Shown piece by piece: positions 4,604-40,618 of a DNA stretch of 56,911 nucleotides. Position numbers and translations under genes: made by a program. The stretch's first letter is position 1; the number at the start of each line of letters is the position of its first letter. The notes under the pieces are model-generated. The model ran no database searches, was not told the origin of the DNA, and saw only the letters and a list, made by a program, of their open reading frames with translations. Origin of the DNA: a virus (Duplodnaviria > Caudoviricetes); IMG/VR virus record IMGVR_UViG_3300023179_000128, positions 1-56,911 of that record, one strand, 5' to 3'.

Positions 4604-5491
4604 ATGAGCAAACAACATACATTATGGGTTGAAAAATTTAGACCCGATACGTTGGAAGGTTATTTAGGTAATGAAGAGTTTATTAATGGTCTACAAGAGT
4701 GGATTGGTAAAAATGATTTTCCTAATTTATTACTTCATGGTCCTGCTGGTACAGGTAAGACAACAGCTGCTAAATTAGTAGTTAAAAATATTAATTGTGA
4801 TTTTATATATTTGAATTGTAGTGATGAGAATGGTATTGATACAATTAGAGATAAAGTAAAACAATTCGCTTCAGGTGCTACATTTAAACCACTTAAAGTT
4901 GTTATATTAGATGAAGCTGATTTCTTAACTATAAACGCTCAAGCAGCACTTAGGAATGTTATTGAATCATTTAGTTTAACTACTAGGTTTATATTCACTT
5001 GTAATTTTACAGAACGTATTATTGATCCATTGCAATCCAGATTAACATCATTCCATTTAATCACACCTGAACCAAAACAAATAGCTAAACATTTAAAAGG
5101 TATATTAGAACAAGAACAAGTAGAATTTGAAGTAAATGATCTAGTCAATATTGTTAAAAAAACTTATCCTGATATTAGACGTGCGTTAAATATATTGCAA
5201 AGCAGCATTAATAAAGGTAAATTAACACCTAAAAATATAACTGACAATAATTATACTGATCAAATTATAGCTGAAGTAAAATCAGGTAAAAAACAGGCAT
5301 TTAATAGTGTTAGACAGATTATAGCTGACAATAACATTTCAGATTTTACAGGTATATATAAAGAATTACATAATGCTTTATCAACACCTGAAGCAACTAT
5401 AGTGATAGAAGAATATTTATTTCATTCAACTACTATTCCAGACAAAGAAATTTGTTTTTGCGGATGTGTAGCTAAACTTTTAAACATATAA
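4604..5491 (+). CDS. gp44: Sliding clamp loader AAA+ subunit (T4 gp44/RFC-like)
   Basis: LWVEKFRP, GPAGTGKTT Walker A, ILDEAD Walker B, PLQSR, DIRRALN. Confidence 0.93.
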   Translation: MSKQHTLWVEKFRPDTLEGYLGNEEFINGLQEWIGKNDFPNLLLHGPAGTGKTTAAKLVVKNINCDFIYLNCSDENGIDTIRDKVKQFASGATFKPLKVVILDEADFLTINAQAALRNVIESFSLTTRFIFTCNFTERIIDPLQSRLTSFHLITPEPKQIAKHLKGILEQEQVEFEVNDLVNIVKKTYPDIRRALNILQSSINKGKLTPKNITDNNYTDQIIAEVKSGKKQAFNSVRQIIADNNISDFTGIYKELHNALSTPEATIVIEEYLFHSTTIPDKEICFCGCVAKLLNI

Positions 5492-5492
5492 T

Positions 5493-5723
5493 ATGAACCA
5501 AGAACAACCGAGACTAAACATCTCATTAGACAAAACAGCAGAAATTACATGTGATGAATGTGGTCATAATGTATTCCAAGAAGGATTAATGCTTAGAAAA
5601 GCAAGTAAATTTTTAACAGGTACTCCACAAGATGCTCTTATTCCATTACCAGTATTTAGTTGTTCTAAATGTGGTCATGTTAATACAGAGTTTTTACCTG
5701 AACCACTTAAACCAACTGAATAG
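5493..5723 (+). CDS. Small zinc-ribbon protein
   Basis: CDEC...CSKC. Confidence 0.7.
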   Translation: MNQEQPRLNISLDKTAEITCDECGHNVFQEGLMLRKASKFLTGTPQDALIPLPVFSCSKCGHVNTEFLPEPLKPTE

Positions 5724-19829: not shown

Positions 19830-20909
19830 ATGAAATTAAGCACGTTATATAAACGAACCGTGAATGGTAAGGTATCTGAGTATACTATTGAAGTCAAGAA
19901 CAATTGTTTTAGAACAATAACTGGTTATATAGATGGTATCAAAACAACATCCGAATGGACATGTTGTGAAGCTAAAAATGTAGGTAAGAAAAACTCAACC
20001 ACATCTGAAGAACAAGCCACATCTGAAGCTAAAGCAATGCATCGTAAACGTATTGAGTTAGGTTCATTTGAAAATATTAAAGACATAGACAAGCCAGTTC
20101 ATTTTAAACCAATGCTTGCTCATGACTACAATGATTATAAGGATAAAATTGCATATCCAATTTACTCACAACCAAAATTAGATGGAGTCAGATGTATAAT
20201 AAGATCAGATGGTATGTGGTCTAGAAATGGTAAACAAATCATTTCAGCACCCCATATATTTGAATCACTAAAACCACTATTTGAACATGATCCACATTTA
20301 GTATTAGATGGAGAGTTATATGCTAATGGTGATGTAGCTGATTTTAACACAATTATATCTTGTGTTCGGAAAACAAAACCAACTAAAGCGGATTTAGAAA
20401 CATCTAAGAAGATACAATATTGGATTTATGATATACCAAGTGACAATAATGTGTTTACTAAACGCTTTAAGACGTTAAATAAACTAAAATTACCTGAATG
20501 TTGTATTGTGGTACAGACAGATCAAGTTGATAATAGTAATGATATAGCGGCTTACTATTCTGATTATATGAGTAGTGGGTTTGAAGGACAAATGTTAAGA
20601 ACTGATTCATATTATGAAAATAAACGCTCTAAAGGTTTATTAAAACATAAAACATTTGAGGACGCTGAATTTGAAATATTAGGTATTGAAGAAGGTAAAG
20701 GTAAATTAGCTGGTAAAGTAGGTAAACTACAATTTGAAATTAATGGCAAACCATTTGATTCAGCTGTTAATGGTGATCATGAATATTTAGAACAATTATT
20801 CACAACAGGTAATTTAATTGGTAAGAAAGCAACTGTTAAGTATTTTGAATTAACTGAAGATGGATTGCCTCGTTTTCCTAAAGTGATAGCAATTAGAGAT
20901 TTTGAATAA
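19830..20909 (+). CDS. ATP-dependent DNA ligase
   Basis: KPMLA, QPKLDGVR (active Lys), LDGELY, FEGQMLR, LLKHK, PRFP. Confidence 0.95.
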   Translation: MKLSTLYKRTVNGKVSEYTIEVKNNCFRTITGYIDGIKTTSEWTCCEAKNVGKKNSTTSEEQATSEAKAMHRKRIELGSFENIKDIDKPVHFKPMLAHDYNDYKDKIAYPIYSQPKLDGVRCIIRSDGMWSRNGKQIISAPHIFESLKPLFEHDPHLVLDGELYANGDVADFNTIISCVRKTKPTKADLETSKKIQYWIYDIPSDNNVFTKRFKTLNKLKLPECCIVVQTDQVDNSNDIAAYYSDYMSSGFEGQMLRTDSYYENKRSKGLLKHKTFEDAEFEILGIEEGKGKLAGKVGKLQFEINGKPFDSAVNGDHEYLEQLFTTGNLIGKKATVKYFELTEDGLPRFPKVIAIRDFE

Positions 20910-22444: not shown

Positions 22445-22470
22445 TGACCCGGATTTGGTTACTATATTTA
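22445..22470 (+). promoter_or_regulatory. TGACC-N13-TAWMTTTA element
   Basis: TGACC cggatttggttac TATATTTA. Confidence 0.75.
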
Positions 22471-27785: not shown

Positions 27786-28069
27786 CAAACGATTAAACGG
27801 ATGACAAACAGGTGGCGTATGGGAACAGTAATCGAGTTAAACGCGGGTATGGAGTGTATAGGACAAGTCAAATGCGCTATGGTAGGTGACAAGTTGAGGA
27901 GTGTGGGTGGCGTGGCACATGTCACATGTATGCCCCTTTTGTGGGTTAAACAAGCCTTCCCCAACACGGGACCTATATACTTATATATTTAAAGGTTTGG
28001 ATGCCTAAAAAAAAGATGTTATATTATATTATATAAAAAGTTTTAAAAACAAAACAAAAACAATTAGTT

Positions 28070-28303
28070 ATGAGTTACCAAACGAAGGTACGTGCGAATT
28101 ACCTTAACCGCACAGCAAAATTATCATTCTTTAACAACCGCAAACGCAATGGCGATGTAACCCGCATTGCAGATGAGACTGGATATTCAGTGTCTCACAT
28201 TTCAAATATGATCAGCGGTGTGCGTAGAGTAACTGATGTAGCAGCAAATGCTATGTACAATTTGACTCGCCGTCGTGTTAAGAACAGCGAATACTTCGCT
28301 TAA
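28070..28303 (+). CDS. Helix-turn-helix DNA-binding protein
   Basis: VTRIADETGYSVSHISNMISGVRR. Confidence 0.75.
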   Translation: MSYQTKVRANYLNRTAKLSFFNNRKRNGDVTRIADETGYSVSHISNMISGVRRVTDVAANAMYNLTRRRVKNSEYFA

Positions 28304-28980: not shown

Positions 28981-29019
28981 ATTATAAATAAATAATAACA
29001 AAAAACAAAAATCAAGGTT

Positions 29020-29250
29020 ATGAGTAACAAAAACAACACTCCAACAACACAGACAGCTAAACGTGGACGTCCAATCGTAGCAGGTTCTAAACGCCAAGCA
29101 GTAATGGCAATGCGTGACGCAAAACGCAACTCAGGTATTGAGATCAAACGTGGTCGTCCTAAAAATCCAATTACGGTTCAAGTAGACGTTAAAGCTAAAA
29201 CACGTAAAGTAACTAACAGCGTAGCTGTAGTTGACGTTAACGAGGCTTAA
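29020..29250 (+). CDS. Small basic protein with two AT-hook motifs
   Basis: KRGRP twice (AKRGRPIV, IKRGRPKN). Confidence 0.75.
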   Translation: MSNKNNTPTTQTAKRGRPIVAGSKRQAVMAMRDAKRNSGIEIKRGRPKNPITVQVDVKAKTRKVTNSVAVVDVNEA

Positions 29251-29270
29251 TTAATACATTTAAGGGTTAA

Positions 29271-29296
29271 GAAACGCTCCTAATAGGGGGCGTTTC
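29271..29296 (+). terminator. Hairpin, probable terminator
   Basis: GAAACGCTCCT-AAT-AGGGGGCGTTTC. Confidence 0.65.
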
Positions 29297-29335
29297 ATTA
29301 TAAAGCACAATACGTATTAGAAAAAATAATAGACG

Positions 29336-29584
29336 ATGAATAACTTAACACAGTACCTAACTGAGATTAAAACCGAGTTACAAGAACTATATGAGGATCT
29401 AGACCATGAACTAATGAATAGTGATAATCAGGATCTAATAGACGACTCATATCATAACGTAACATCTAAGCTCGAATCAGCACTATCCGAATTAGAAACA
29501 CTAATTAACGATGTTGATAGCGGTATATATGATAGTGACATAAACAGGTTTGAAGACGACGAGTCGTTAGAGGTCGACGAATAA
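29336..29584 (+). CDS. Highly acidic small protein
   Basis: 25 D/E versus 3 K/R in 82 aa. Confidence 0.7.
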   Translation: MNNLTQYLTEIKTELQELYEDLDHELMNSDNQDLIDDSYHNVTSKLESALSELETLINDVDSGIYDSDINRFEDDESLEVDE

Positions 29585-29843
29585 TAAAGGTGTGTTAGAG
29601 GTCCTCTCGCGGATGTTAGAGGATCTGTCTTGTCAAAGGACCCCCGGTAATTGAGGTCCATCGACGGGAGAGGTTGACCGCGAAAAGAAGGGCATGTGTT
29701 CTTCGATCGTACACACCTCTTCACATCGACGCATATATACTTATATATAACCATTTCGACATACATTCCATGGATTGTAAAGAAGAGATTTTTATAGTCT
29801 TTTTAGTCGACGCAAGGTATATACATATATTTTAAGATCCGGA

Positions 29844-29941
29844 CATTAATAGACTAAGATCAACCAATTGCTTCTTCGGTAGGTCTATTAGTGGAAACAA
29901 CCAGTCACTGTATATCCTAAGGGAAGGTGTGATCGAAGAAG
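29844..29941 (+). ncRNA. Candidate pseudoknotted RNA
   Basis: 12-bp stem 29844-55/29882-93; loop CTTCTTCGGT 29871-80 complements ATCGAAGAAG 29932-41. Confidence 0.5.
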
Positions 29942-29945
29942 ATAT

Positions 29946-30044
29946 AGTCAAGTAGCGGAATGGTAAACGCAGGTCGTAGGTAGCACCACTCACATCCAGC
30001 CTTAAACGTGGTGAGTAATACAGGTTCGAATCCTGTCTTGACTA
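29946..30044 (+). tRNA. tRNA-like RNA with aberrant anticodon arm and long extra arm (isotype undetermined)
   Basis: Acceptor AGTCAAG/CTTGACT; D-arm GCG-GAATGGTAAA-CGC; T-arm ACAGG-TTCGAAT-CCTGT; no canonical 5-bp/7-nt anticodon arm; no encoded CCA. Confidence 0.75.
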
Positions 30045-30045
30045 C

Positions 30046-30074
30046 TATAGTGTATTGATTATTAACGCACTATA
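30046..30074 (+). other. Hairpin immediately 3' of the tRNA-like RNA
   Basis: TATAGTGT...GCACTATA stem. Confidence 0.5.
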
Positions 30075-30086
30075 AAAATGAGCGGC

Positions 30087-30112
30087 TGACCGCGACTTTT
30101 ATGTTATCTTTA
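30087..30112 (+). promoter_or_regulatory. TGACC-N13-TAWMTTTA element
   Basis: TGACC gcgacttttatgt TATCTTTA. Confidence 0.75.
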
Positions 30113-30124
30113 TTATATAATAAA

Positions 30125-30367
30125 ATGACAAAAGATATGAATAACACGAAAGAAAATTTAAAGACATTAATACAGTTACCTATACACCAGTATAATGCAA
30201 TTATTAAGTTAATTAACCCAAAATTAACAAATGAAGATCTACAACCAATGTTTCCAGAAGGTTGGGATGATAATAATAAATGGCCTAAGTTTACAAACAA
30301 TTATGAATCGTTTCGTAAATATCAAATTCAAATTGATGAAGAATTAGAACGCCAAATGGGTTGTTAA
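30125..30367 (+). CDS. Hypothetical early protein
   Basis: Start ATG 30125 or 30137 after TGACC element. Confidence 0.65.
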   Translation: MTKDMNNTKENLKTLIQLPIHQYNAIIKLINPKLTNEDLQPMFPEGWDDNNKWPKFTNNYESFRKYQIQIDEELERQMGC

Positions 30368-30368
30368 T

Positions 30369-30394
30369 TGACCCGGATTCGCTCACTATATTTA
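30369..30394 (+). promoter_or_regulatory. TGACC-N13-TAWMTTTA element
   Basis: TGACC cggattcgctcac TATATTTA. Confidence 0.75.
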
Positions 30395-30412
30395 ATTATA
30401 AATAAAGAAAAT

Positions 30413-31763: not shown

Positions 31764-31870
31764 TTGATTGACCCGGGCTACCTTGCTATCTTTATTATAT
31801 AAGAAGAAACGGGAGAAAAGCGGAACAGGAATAATAGAATTGATTGACCGCAACTGTTTTGATAAATTTA
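31764..31870 (+). promoter_or_regulatory. Tandem pair of TGACC elements, 76 bp apart
   Basis: TGACC at 31769 and 31845, boxes at 31787 and 31863. Confidence 0.75.
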
Positions 31871-31882
31871 AATATAAATAAA

Positions 31883-32722
31883 ATGACAAAAAATATGAAC
31901 ACAAGTATGAAAAAACGTGGTAGACCAAGTAAAAAACAAGTAACTGAGTATCAAGTATCAGTTCCAACATTAATTGATTTTGATATTGTTAAGTTGAACA
32001 ACTTAGATATTGATCCACGAATGATGGAAACAATGAAAAGTGGTATGTCAATTGATGATTTGATTTCACACGAAGGTGGTATACCATGTGCAACTAATAT
32101 TATGTGTATAGGTGATCCAGGAGTTGGTAAAACAACTGTGTTATTGGATTTGTTAGCTGGTGTTCAGAATCGTGGTAGAAAATGTTTGTTCATTTCAGGT
32201 GAAATGGGTAAAAAACAAATGTTCAAATACACACAACGTTTTCCACAATTCGGTAACATTCAAACATTGTTTATGTCTGATTATTTAGAACATAATACTA
32301 AAGATGTAATTGAACAAGTTATGAATATGGGTTGGGATTTGATTTTGATTGATAGTATAGCTGAGATTATTGAAGGTGTTCGTGATGACAATAAATGGGA
32401 TCGTAAGCAAGCTGAATCATGGTTAGTTGATTTGTGTGTTAAGAATAATAAAGGTGAAAATAAACAAGATAAGTTCACATCGTATTTATTGATTCAACAA
32501 GTTACTAAACAAGGTGATTTTGTAGGTTCAAATAAATTAAAACACATGACAGATGCAATGATGGAAATGCGTAGAAGAAGTGATCGTGATGGTGGTGGAA
32601 CATATATGAATTTTATGAAGAATAGAAATGGTAATGTGGATATGCATTTTAGTTATGAACTACAAAACGATTACATTTACTACGGTACAATATCAAAATC
32701 TGAAGTTGGGGAAGATGAATAA
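31883..32722 (+). CDS. RadA/Sms-like RecA-fold ATPase with N-terminal AT-hook
   Basis: KKRGRPSKK; GDPGVGKTT, FISGE, LIDSI, QVTKQGDFVGSNKLKHMTD, KNRNG (cf. RadA KNRFG). Confidence 0.8.
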   Translation: MTKNMNTSMKKRGRPSKKQVTEYQVSVPTLIDFDIVKLNNLDIDPRMMETMKSGMSIDDLISHEGGIPCATNIMCIGDPGVGKTTVLLDLLAGVQNRGRKCLFISGEMGKKQMFKYTQRFPQFGNIQTLFMSDYLEHNTKDVIEQVMNMGWDLILIDSIAEIIEGVRDDNKWDRKQAESWLVDLCVKNNKGENKQDKFTSYLLIQQVTKQGDFVGSNKLKHMTDAMMEMRRRSDRDGGGTYMNFMKNRNGNVDMHFSYELQNDYIYYGTISKSEVGEDE

Positions 32723-39859: not shown

Positions 39860-40618
39860 ATGGCTGAAGAAGAAGTATTACTTACTAAGAAAGGGACTGT
39901 CCGTAAACGAAAACCAAAAAAAGCAAATGTCTATTTTACCCAAGACACTGAAGATGCTATCTTAGAGTATTTAAAATCAAAAAATACTAAGAAACGAAAT
40001 CAAATATTTAACGAAAGAATTAACTATGCGTTTCATAAACTGGCTGAGAATATCATTCATACTTTTAAGTTTTACTATACAGAGGTGGATACAATTCCTG
40101 AGTTACAACATGAAGTAGTAGCATTTTTATTAGAGAAATTACACTTATATAAACAAGAAAAAGGTAAAGCATTTTCTTATTTTGGCACAATTACTAAGCG
40201 TTATTTAATATTATACAACAACGCTAATTATAAGAAACTAAAAGATAGAGCGCCTGTAGAGGCAGCAGATGAAGATAAGACAATATTAGTAGATCTAGTT
40301 AAAAATAGTGAAGCAGATGGTGATCAAGTTTATGAGACATCTTCATTCCTGAAACAGTTTACCAAATATGTTGACGCTAAGTTATTTGATTTATTTCCAA
40401 AACAACGTGATGCTCAAATAGCAGATGCTATAATGGAATTATTTAGAAAAAATGAAAATATTGATATCTTTAATAAAAAGGCATTATACATCTATATTAA
40501 AGAAATAACAGATGCATCAACCCCTCAAATAACTAAGATTATTAAGCGTTTAAAAGTAGTATACGTTAAAAAATATAATGAATATTATGAACATGGTCAT
40601 GTAACTATGGCTAATTAA
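39860..40618 (+). CDS. Phage sigma factor for late transcription (T4 gp55-like)
   Basis: YFTQDTEDAILEY, KLAENII, EKGKAFSYFGTITKRYLI resemble gp55 region 2; directly upstream of structural genes. Confidence 0.7.
   Translation: MAEEEVLLTKKGTVRKRKPKKANVYFTQDTEDAILEYLKSKNTKKRNQIFNERINYAFHKLAENIIHTFKFYYTEVDTIPELQHEVVAFLLEKLHLYKQEKGKAFSYFGTITKRYLILYNNANYKKLKDRAPVEAADEDKTILVDLVKNSEADGDQVYETSSFLKQFTKYVDAKLFDLFPKQRDAQIADAIMELFRKNENIDIFNKKALYIYIKEITDASTPQITKIIKRLKVVYVKKYNEYYEHGHVTMAN

Follow-up and report, generated by a model that had tools for sequence, protein, structure and literature searches.

The 56,911-base IMG/VR virus record IMGVR_UViG_3300023179_000128 (hereafter the window, meaning the whole stretch of DNA that was analyzed) carries, around 29.6 kilobases (kb), a GC-rich tract with short direct repeats, which is a lineage-specific, single-copy, non-coding element that acts through its primary sequence, most probably as double-stranded DNA. 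The interpretation that we tentatively favor is that the tract is an assembly site for a protein governing initiation at this locus, in what would be a specialized, regulated promoter region. A nucleoprotein assembly site on DNA fits best because the constraint is on the primary sequence, the spacing of the repeats is rigid, relatives differ by whole units, the element is present in a single copy, it includes a promoter-like module, and no RNA fold accompanies it. The original prediction, which was based on the letters of the window, had proposed an origin or packaging signal, or a structured non-coding RNA. What stands of this proposal is a repeat-bearing, iteron-like functional non-coding element; the structured RNA does not. 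All of the motifs and stems listed in that prediction are present in the sequence at the coordinates it gave.

The element adjoins a small protein gene, and both were used in the comparison with relatives.

29336..29584, + strand: ORF82, an acidic 82-residue protein of no known family, directly upstream of the element; its last codons carry the first GTTAGAGG (29566-29573).
29608..29757, + strand: the conserved non-coding core block, about 150 bases, with its conservation peak at 29638-29682 (ACCCCCGGTAATTGAGGTCCATCGACGGGAGAGGTTGACC).

A search with the ORF82 protein identified eight viral loci, with amino-acid identities of 63-76%, and at all eight the DNA just downstream of ORF82 matches the tract, with 77-83% nucleotide identity. 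An exact-pattern scan with the most conserved 22-mer retrieved 17 viral contigs with one copy each (17 of 17), and the core is also single-copy in the window record. Scanning metagenomes with an alignment of ORF82 added 36 further loci. The core profile matched 31 of them, which are all (31 of 31) of those that keep DNA downstream of ORF82; the five unmatched loci (L046, L053, L054, L061 and L062) end at ORF82 or no more than about 25 nucleotides (nt) from it. After removal of duplicates, 37 distinct core sequences were available. Across the 29 sequences with wide flanks, the mean pairwise identity is 0.69-0.89 in the block, 0.64-0.74 in most of ORF82, and 0.2-0.5 in the flanks. Thus, the block is under stronger constraint than the adjoining protein gene.

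This constraint does not reflect a protein: no conserved coding frame crosses the core on either strand in the 37 sequences. The longest stretch free of stops is anywhere between 21 and 85 codons long on the + strand, and between 34 and 137 codons on the minus strand; single-base insertions or deletions lie within the core in L005 and L008. The minus-strand open reading frame (ORF) at 29452-29766, whose translation would have refuted the original prediction on its own terms, does exist (104 residues) but is not conserved; in six of the 37 sequences (L003, L044, L047, L041, L055 and L019) only 34-35 codons remain open.

The genome as a whole is estimated from the record, which is rated 35% complete, at about 160 kb. 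Its GC content is about 0.29 over the window, essentially all long ORFs are on the + strand, and gene starts have no Shine-Dalgarno sequences, the leaders being A-rich. Because the nearest cultured relative found is a Flavobacterium phage, vB_FspM_immuto (47% amino-acid identity for one baseplate wedge protein), the host is likely of the Bacteroidota type. Neither the element nor ORF82 has a match in immuto; a blastn search of 50,697 phage records with 29300-30100 was without a match, and so was tblastn with ORF82 and with the 408-residue protein. Only unnamed viral clusters, and no family, were found for ORF82 in the ESM Atlas.

The tract differs from its surroundings in base composition, as had been predicted: its GC content is 0.47-0.49 at 29525-29749. 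It lies inside a cluster of small genes at 27-32 kb, in which GC is also raised (0.37-0.39), and is flanked by ORF82 and by a gene resembling a transfer RNA (tRNA), at 29946-30044. The repeats pointed out by the original prediction proved to be enriched, phased, conserved and single-copy, and its motifs are grouped far beyond chance when compared with the shuffled window. GTTAGAGG occurs three times in the whole window (29566, 29594 and 29615), all within 57 nt, where 0.93 copies are expected; four of 100 shuffles reached three copies anywhere. TCGAC has five copies on the + strand of the window, every one inside 29574-29807. Seven copies are found on the minus strand, two of which are the palindromic GTCGAC sites at the same places as + strand copies, and GTCGAC itself has only two sites in the window, at 29573 and 29806. 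TCGACGCA occurs twice (29726 and 29807) against an expectation of 0.14, and none of 100 shuffles reached two. Over the window, the tetranucleotide TCGA is about 5.5 times rarer than expected (27 sites instead of about 150), but six of these 27 sites fall in 29560-29850. TGCA is strongly depleted in the window as well (58 observed, about 150 expected), and both depletions look as if they were due to restriction pressure. Two stretches that hold such repeats are the following.

29594..29622, + strand: copies two and three of GTTAGAGG (29594 and 29615), both exact; the array is variable at this 5′ side, and relatives differ here by the gain or loss of whole units.
29659..29666, + strand: CATCGACG, a repeat family in conserved columns, with a second copy at 29724-29731, 65 nt downstream; both copies contain the otherwise avoided TCGA.

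These repeats are contained in a phased array with a 17-nt register, which the original prediction had not described.

29617..29701, + strand: phased array of five 17-nt units, with RAGG heads at 29618 (AGAGG), 29635 (AAAGG), 29652 (TGAGG), 29669 (AGAGG) and 29687 (GAAGG).

Additional RAGG heads in the window form a two-unit series (29569 and 29586), and there is one off-phase copy, at 29597. Seven of the 28 pairs of RAGG sites in 29560-29700 are separated by multiples of 17, which random placement of eight sites produced in 10 of 20,000 trials; mono-nucleotide shuffles of the tract contain 2.3 RAGG sites, versus the eight observed. The same register recurs across the 37 sequences, where 110 RAGG pairs are 17 nt apart, 71 are 34 nt apart and 36 are 51 nt apart, and self-identity has its maximum at lag 17 (0.39, versus about 0.25). 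Chains of in-phase heads are five heads long in 21 sequences, six in five, seven in two, four in one and three in eight; hence the hallmark of iterons, namely at least three regularly spaced direct repeats in one orientation, is found in all 37. Variation in length on the 5′ side consists of one extra block of about 17 nt, in eight of the 37 sequences (L004, L005, L015, L036, L052, L055, L057 and L058).

When read in register, the consensus units are tAgAGGat..., tAaAGgaCCCCcGnTAA, TtGAGGTCCATCGAcgg and gAGaGGnTGACCc..., followed by AAaaaggataTgTgTTt. Spacers are invariant in the central units, while in the 5′ units the heads alone are kept, and the GTTAGAGG copies are the best-preserved heads. 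In one relative, L009, a 22-nt unit (TCCTCTGTAGTTCCGGTAATGT) is repeated 7.5 times in tandem just 5′ of the core, at positions 220-392 of that locus; this unit holds CCGGTAAT, as in the core, together with CCTCT, the complement of the AGAGG head. Two other readings of the repeats were considered and set aside as unsupported: GATCCTCT as a DnaA box, with matches at five of nine positions of the consensus, and mimicry of the repeats of CRISPR (clustered regularly interspaced short palindromic repeats) arrays.

The array runs directly into a promoter-like module, beyond which lie two boxes.

29675..29702, + strand: promoter-like module, TGACCGCGA (29675-83), 11 nt, then TGTGTTCT (29695-702); a divergent copy of the class-A promoter motif.
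29720..29750, + strand: box B1, CACATCGACGCATATATACTTATATATA (CACATCGACGCATATATACNTATATA), which hardly varies and whose distance from the array is fixed.
29806..29831, + strand: box B2, GTCGACGCAAGGTATATACATATAT, a second TCGAC-plus-TATATAC box, conserved in most relatives; the T-run before it is at 29789-29805.

Class A is the very regular early-promoter motif of this phage group, TGACCGCRACT-N9-TAnnTTTA, which is found in the window at 22445, 28388, 28464, 30087, 30369 and 31845, and at many of the other loci. A relaxed class-A-like pattern, applied to all loci, yielded 91 distinct contexts on the + strand versus one on the minus strand. Those that were printed out mostly stand 15-40 nt before an ATG, a position that would imply very short leaders, and two of the printed + strand contexts are the core's own divergent copy. 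The TTGACC at 29674, which the original prediction had taken for an orphan without its downstream box, belongs to this copy; a downstream box is in fact present, degenerate but conserved, at a fixed spacing. The module is found in 36 of the 37 cores, with a spacing of N11 in 34 and N10 in two, and its octamer is TGTGTTTA in 18 of them and TGTGTTCT in the window. TTGACC is thus a class-A box, with a T-rich octamer behind it in 36 of 37 cores, and the element accordingly contains a divergent early-promoter copy. Compared with a sigma-A promoter, in which an upstream TTG lies about 19 nt from the -7 box, the module has the TTG of TTGACC, but its octamer lacks the A at position 2 (in the window and in 18 of 36 cores). 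The class-A octamer TAnnTTTA, for its part, fits the flavobacterial sigma-A -7 consensus, which is TAnnTTTG according to PMC9723704.

Downstream of the module, and at a fixed distance from it, stands the invariant box CATCGACGCATATATACNTATATA. The invariant ATATATACNTATATA box is located 30-45 nt past the last unit; the genome is 71% AT, and this box recurs as a promoter-like motif. Box B1 belongs to a recurring TATATACNTATAT box, whose C-containing form has + strand copies in the window at 27974, 29734, 29818 and 31304. ORFs of relatives often begin 20-45 nt after a box of this type, and by their placement these boxes look like promoter or leader elements too. As a side observation, NCBIfam weakly matches a 252-residue ORF at 39860-40618 to an RNA polymerase sigma factor, with an E of 0.003 that falls far short of the cut-off; its product is a possible phage sigma-like protein, which might read the TATATAC boxes.

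Because repeats, promoter and AT tract together have the look of promoter-type and iteron-type origins, a replication origin is the closest rival in architecture. The phased repeats would then be iterons, and either the invariant AT box would unwind or a transcript from the embedded promoter would form a primer R-loop; in T4, a promoter transcript forms the primer R-loop at oriF and oriG. We consider this explanation rather improbable, despite a number of features that are consistent with it. The direct repeats share one orientation and a regular spacing, and vary in unit number; each contig has a single copy, with a promoter-like module inside the element and a conserved AT-only box directly downstream; the + strand is purine- and G-rich, with a GC skew of +0.31 at 29525-29674; and the 5′ edge bears the 7.5 tandem 22-nt repeats in L009. 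In addition, the gene directly upstream of ORF82 in L008 and L060 is a homologue (85% identity) of a RecA/RadA/DnaB-like ATPase, which in the window is encoded at 31844-32722 and begins KKRGRPSKK. The best matches of this ATPase, however, are RecA and RadA and not a replicative helicase, and no initiator is recognizable: scans with Pfam, NCBIfam and PHROGs, and a PDB sequence search of the 372-residue ORF, recognized no Rep, DnaA or primase family among the nearby proteins. Moreover, an AT tract of 18 nt is unremarkable at 29% GC, and the cumulative GC skew climbs evenly past 29.6 kb without a turn, although with all genes on one strand this says little. A literature search on replication origins and iterons of Flavobacterium phages gave nothing relevant among the papers listed.

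The original prediction had drawn nested stems and a pseudoknot, and the energetics of RNA folding were evaluated for the window and for its relatives. The drawn stems can be read in the window, i.e., AGGTGTGT at 29588-95 with ACACACCT at 29711-18, and AGGTCCTCT at 29599-607 with AGAGGATCT at 29618-26, as can the CGCGG/CCGCG pairing and the TTGACC at 29674. The window RNA at 29585-29725 folds with -53.0 kcal/mol, compared with -41.1 ± 4.0 for shuffles (z -3.0). These helices nevertheless occur in the window sequence alone and are not kept in relatives, most of which lack the 5′ arms of the drawn stems. In 15 sequences the closing stem, the hairpin and the pseudoknot are paired in 38%, 52% and 53% of cells, and sliding the drawn partners by one column gives 48% pairing overall, versus 47% without the slide. 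RNAalifold, on 15 sequences, returns a consensus of -2.8 kcal/mol with six invariant pairs and no compensatory change. The 110-nt cores of the 37 homologues are no more stable than dinucleotide shuffles (mean z 0.03; none of 37 below -2; -1.67 for the window segment). Rfam, searched over 29000-30400 at the gathering score and at E up to 10, has nothing overlapping 29566-29811, the tRNA at 29946-30044 being its sole match, and ARAGORN, run on the window and eight loci, reports nothing in the tract. Further helices that were proposed by eye (AAAGG/CCTTT with TGTGTT/AATACA, ATGTG/CACAT, and GGACC/GGTCC) were discarded, as none rose above shuffles in 35 sequences.

The covariation method has power on this data set, because it does detect a covarying terminator hairpin. 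This hairpin, with its T-run, lies about 100 nt downstream in 19 relatives; 80% of its cells are paired, and it has 29 double-change cells versus 8.6 ± 2.7 in shuffles (none of 500 as high). In relatives, some 20-110 nt after B1 (for example L002 3420-3480 and L005 3430-3490), there is a unit consisting of a C/A-rich 5′ part, a long GC hairpin and a T-run. The unit is either a putative small RNA or the 3′ terminus of the message of ORF82; the strong downstream hairpin is absent from the window. Comparative data thus contradict the structured-RNA reading, and a structured non-coding RNA with nested stems and a pseudoknot, for which the z of -3.0 and the existence of all drawn stems in the window would speak, is in our estimate very improbable. 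A convincing single-sequence fold (z -3) can evidently be wholly lineage-specific.

Transcription of the region was assessed in metatranscriptome contigs of four runs, which give neither strand nor transcript ends. Two short, low-depth RNA contigs, from libraries of two studies, cover 29693-29927 and 29758-29979, each with one mismatch; they bridge both boxes and reach the tRNA-like gene, and DNA carry-over is possible. The interval 29412-29692 has no cover in these contigs, which at this low depth, with ORF82 itself bare, is uninformative either way. Within the 6-kb stretch examined, the word depth of the contigs, a poor measure of expression, is highest over an ORF resembling a helix-turn-helix (HTH) protein (about 20-40) and over the KRGRP ORF described below (about 5-8).

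29946..30044, + strand: tRNA-like gene, with 46.4 bits to the Rfam tRNA family; a stretch of 44 nt stands where the 17-nt anticodon arm would be, and the gene is missed by ARAGORN.

This gene is the first recognizable product downstream of both boxes in the window. Splicing at its 44-nt joint (29974/30019) was considered on account of two RNA contigs and rejected; their shorter side is 27 letters, and other tRNAs are a possible source.

An element may also act at the level of RNA without being folded. The array would then be part of an unstructured 3′ tail of the ORF82 message, or of a short terminator-ended RNA, and its RAGG heads would bind an RNA-binding protein, as a decoy or a platform. 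We consider this rather improbable too, although the sense-strand bias and the spacing of about 17 nt are accounted for just as well by an unstructured protein-binding RNA. All heads are on the sense strand and no terminator is seen between ORF82 and the core; the covarying hairpin and T-run in 19 relatives indicate that + strand transcripts end there; the core folds no better than its shuffles, which is what a single-stranded platform would show; metatranscriptome contigs cover 29693-29979; and the spacing of about 17-18 nt resembles that of multiple sites in sponge RNAs of the CsrB type. Conversely, no transcript is seen over the heads (in contigs only, at low depth), and in the central units the spacers vary as little as the heads do, an invariance that a simple sponge would not require. 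The base after the GG of the heads varies (GGA, GGT and GGC), unlike in the CsrA motif A(N)GGA, and the extra repeats of L009 carry the complement CCTCT. Judging from the gene starts here and from PMC6847099, the host is also of a type without Shine-Dalgarno use. In a special form of this idea, the heads in the unstructured tail of the ORF82 message would, being Shine-Dalgarno-like, make up a multivalent decoy at the RNA level, in hosts whose lineage makes no use of such sequences; it might target an RNA-binding regulator, or else the anti-Shine-Dalgarno end of 16S ribosomal RNA, which is normally hidden. We regard this form as a long shot. If true, it would be a phage-encoded sponge RNA of a new kind; as RNA in general, the element would be an unusual unstructured, phased, protein-binding RNA.

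Returning to the assembly site on DNA, the mechanism that we envisage is that a sequence-specific protein would bind the phased RAGG heads cooperatively, and would thereby control initiation at this single locus. The controlled event may be transcription of a short downstream unit, or else a promoter-type origin. Such a unit would end at the covarying terminator hairpin in 19 relatives, and would lead toward the tRNA-like gene in the window. Candidate binders are the acidic ORF82 and a small basic protein, both from small genes just upstream.

29020..29250, + strand: KRGRP gene; its product is small and basic, has two KRGRP motifs and may bind the element.

Of the 19 longer loci, 16 have a homologue of this gene upstream of ORF82, and in 15 it is directly upstream. 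The KRGRP motif is, we assume, AT-hook-like. As supporting context, six TCGA sites are kept in the tract although the genome avoids TCGA. We infer from these data that the site is bound by a protein and that its output is transcription, not the priming of replication; the identity of the binder is likewise inferred, and the choice of candidate is a guess from the gene neighborhood.

Several points weigh against this interpretation. No binding protein was recognized among the neighbors, and Pfam gave no match for the KRGRP protein. A period of 17 base pairs (bp) corresponds to 1.6 helical turns, which places successive sites on different faces of the DNA, and this is unusual for simple cooperative operators. 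The -7-like box of the core departs from the consensus TA, and the module may therefore be doubtful as an active promoter. RNA contigs that bridge both boxes do not fit a clean transcript start at either one. Finally, the genome is transcribed in one direction, with every head on the sense strand, and a scan for terminators found none from ORF82 to the core, so that the tract itself is probably transcribed and may have a role as RNA.

The remaining proposal, a recognition site for packaging (pac or cos), has a merely generic likeness to the element, in that short repeats are clustered in a single-copy site; nothing specific was found in its favor. No terminase gene was recognized among the scanned neighbors, and the site stands among small early-type genes, each with its own promoter. 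Nor do contigs consistently end at the site, which is mid-way in the window contig and at varying positions in others; several do end within a few kb of the element, which we judged, informally, to be roughly chance plus assembly breaks at repeats. A packaging site is accordingly extremely improbable.

Other features of the neighborhood were recorded in passing. A 77-residue ORF at 28070-28303 is weakly HTH-like and is also syntenic. The 79-residue ORF at 27546-27785 matches Pfam FlbD, a flagellar or swarming motility protein, with 30.2 bits against a curated cut-off of 24.7, which is odd for a phage whose likely hosts glide and do not swim. A near-identical stretch (consensus approximately TTATATTTAATTATAAATAAAAATAAAGGTT) occurs right before the ATG of four genes, in the upstream regions at 19830, 20956, 22500 and 24836. 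The tRNA-like gene belongs to a family in which the acceptor stem, the start of the D-arm (AGTCAGGTGGCGGAAT...) and the T-arm with the 3′ end (CAGGTTCGAATCCTGTCCTGACTA) are near-identical, and the middle is wholly different; lengths are 69, 69, 74, 92, 95, 99, 128 and 132 nt. Copies are found in the window (29946-30044), in L004 (about 2900-2969, 5166-5244, and about 5440-5575), in L007 (about 2620-2756), in L008 (2946-3038), and in L030, L048 and L062, and several stand just before ORF82 in relatives.

The non-coding control sites of uncultured aquatic phages of the Flavobacterium type are essentially unmapped. One concrete element is now defined, by a constraint above that of the neighboring gene, a 17-bp register, homology to a promoter box, and an invariant AT box, together with a short list of candidate binders encoded beside it. 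If the element were an origin or a master switch, it would provide a handle for replicons or reporters in this phage group.

Known systems resemble the element in part. Sponge RNAs such as CsrB and RsmZ also present a GG-containing purine motif every 17-18 nt or so on the transcribed strand; here, in contrast, no A(N)GGA is presented in hairpin loops, and the spacers do not vary. This type of host is not known to carry CsrA. The centromere-like arrays of ParR-parC systems similarly consist of contiguous short repeats with small genes beside the site, but no partition ATPase or ribbon-helix-helix protein was recognized here, and there is no evident reason why a lytic-type phage of about 160 kb should require partition.

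The iteron origins, i.e., lambda ori, plasmid Rep-iteron origins and T4 oriE, share with the element regular repeats in one orientation, an AT-rich neighboring tract, a single copy and a variable number of repeats. They differ in that the units here are contiguous at 17 bp (1.6 turns), compared with an iteron spacing of about 22 bp, that only a head of 5-8 bp is common to the units, and that there is no recognizable initiator gene. With T4 oriF and oriG the element has in common a promoter-like module that has an AT-only tract a fixed distance behind it, and a purine-rich non-template strand; its boxes, however, are a TGACC box and a flavobacterial-type TAnnTTTA-like box, and the phased array upstream has no T4 counterpart. 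Lastly, compared with the class-A promoters of its own phage group, the core has N11 instead of N9, an octamer TGTRTTYN without TA, no ORF within 40 nt, and the RAGG array in place of the upstream TTGAT, but it retains their TGACCGCGA box, which is likewise on this strand and has a T-rich octamer behind it at a fixed spacing.

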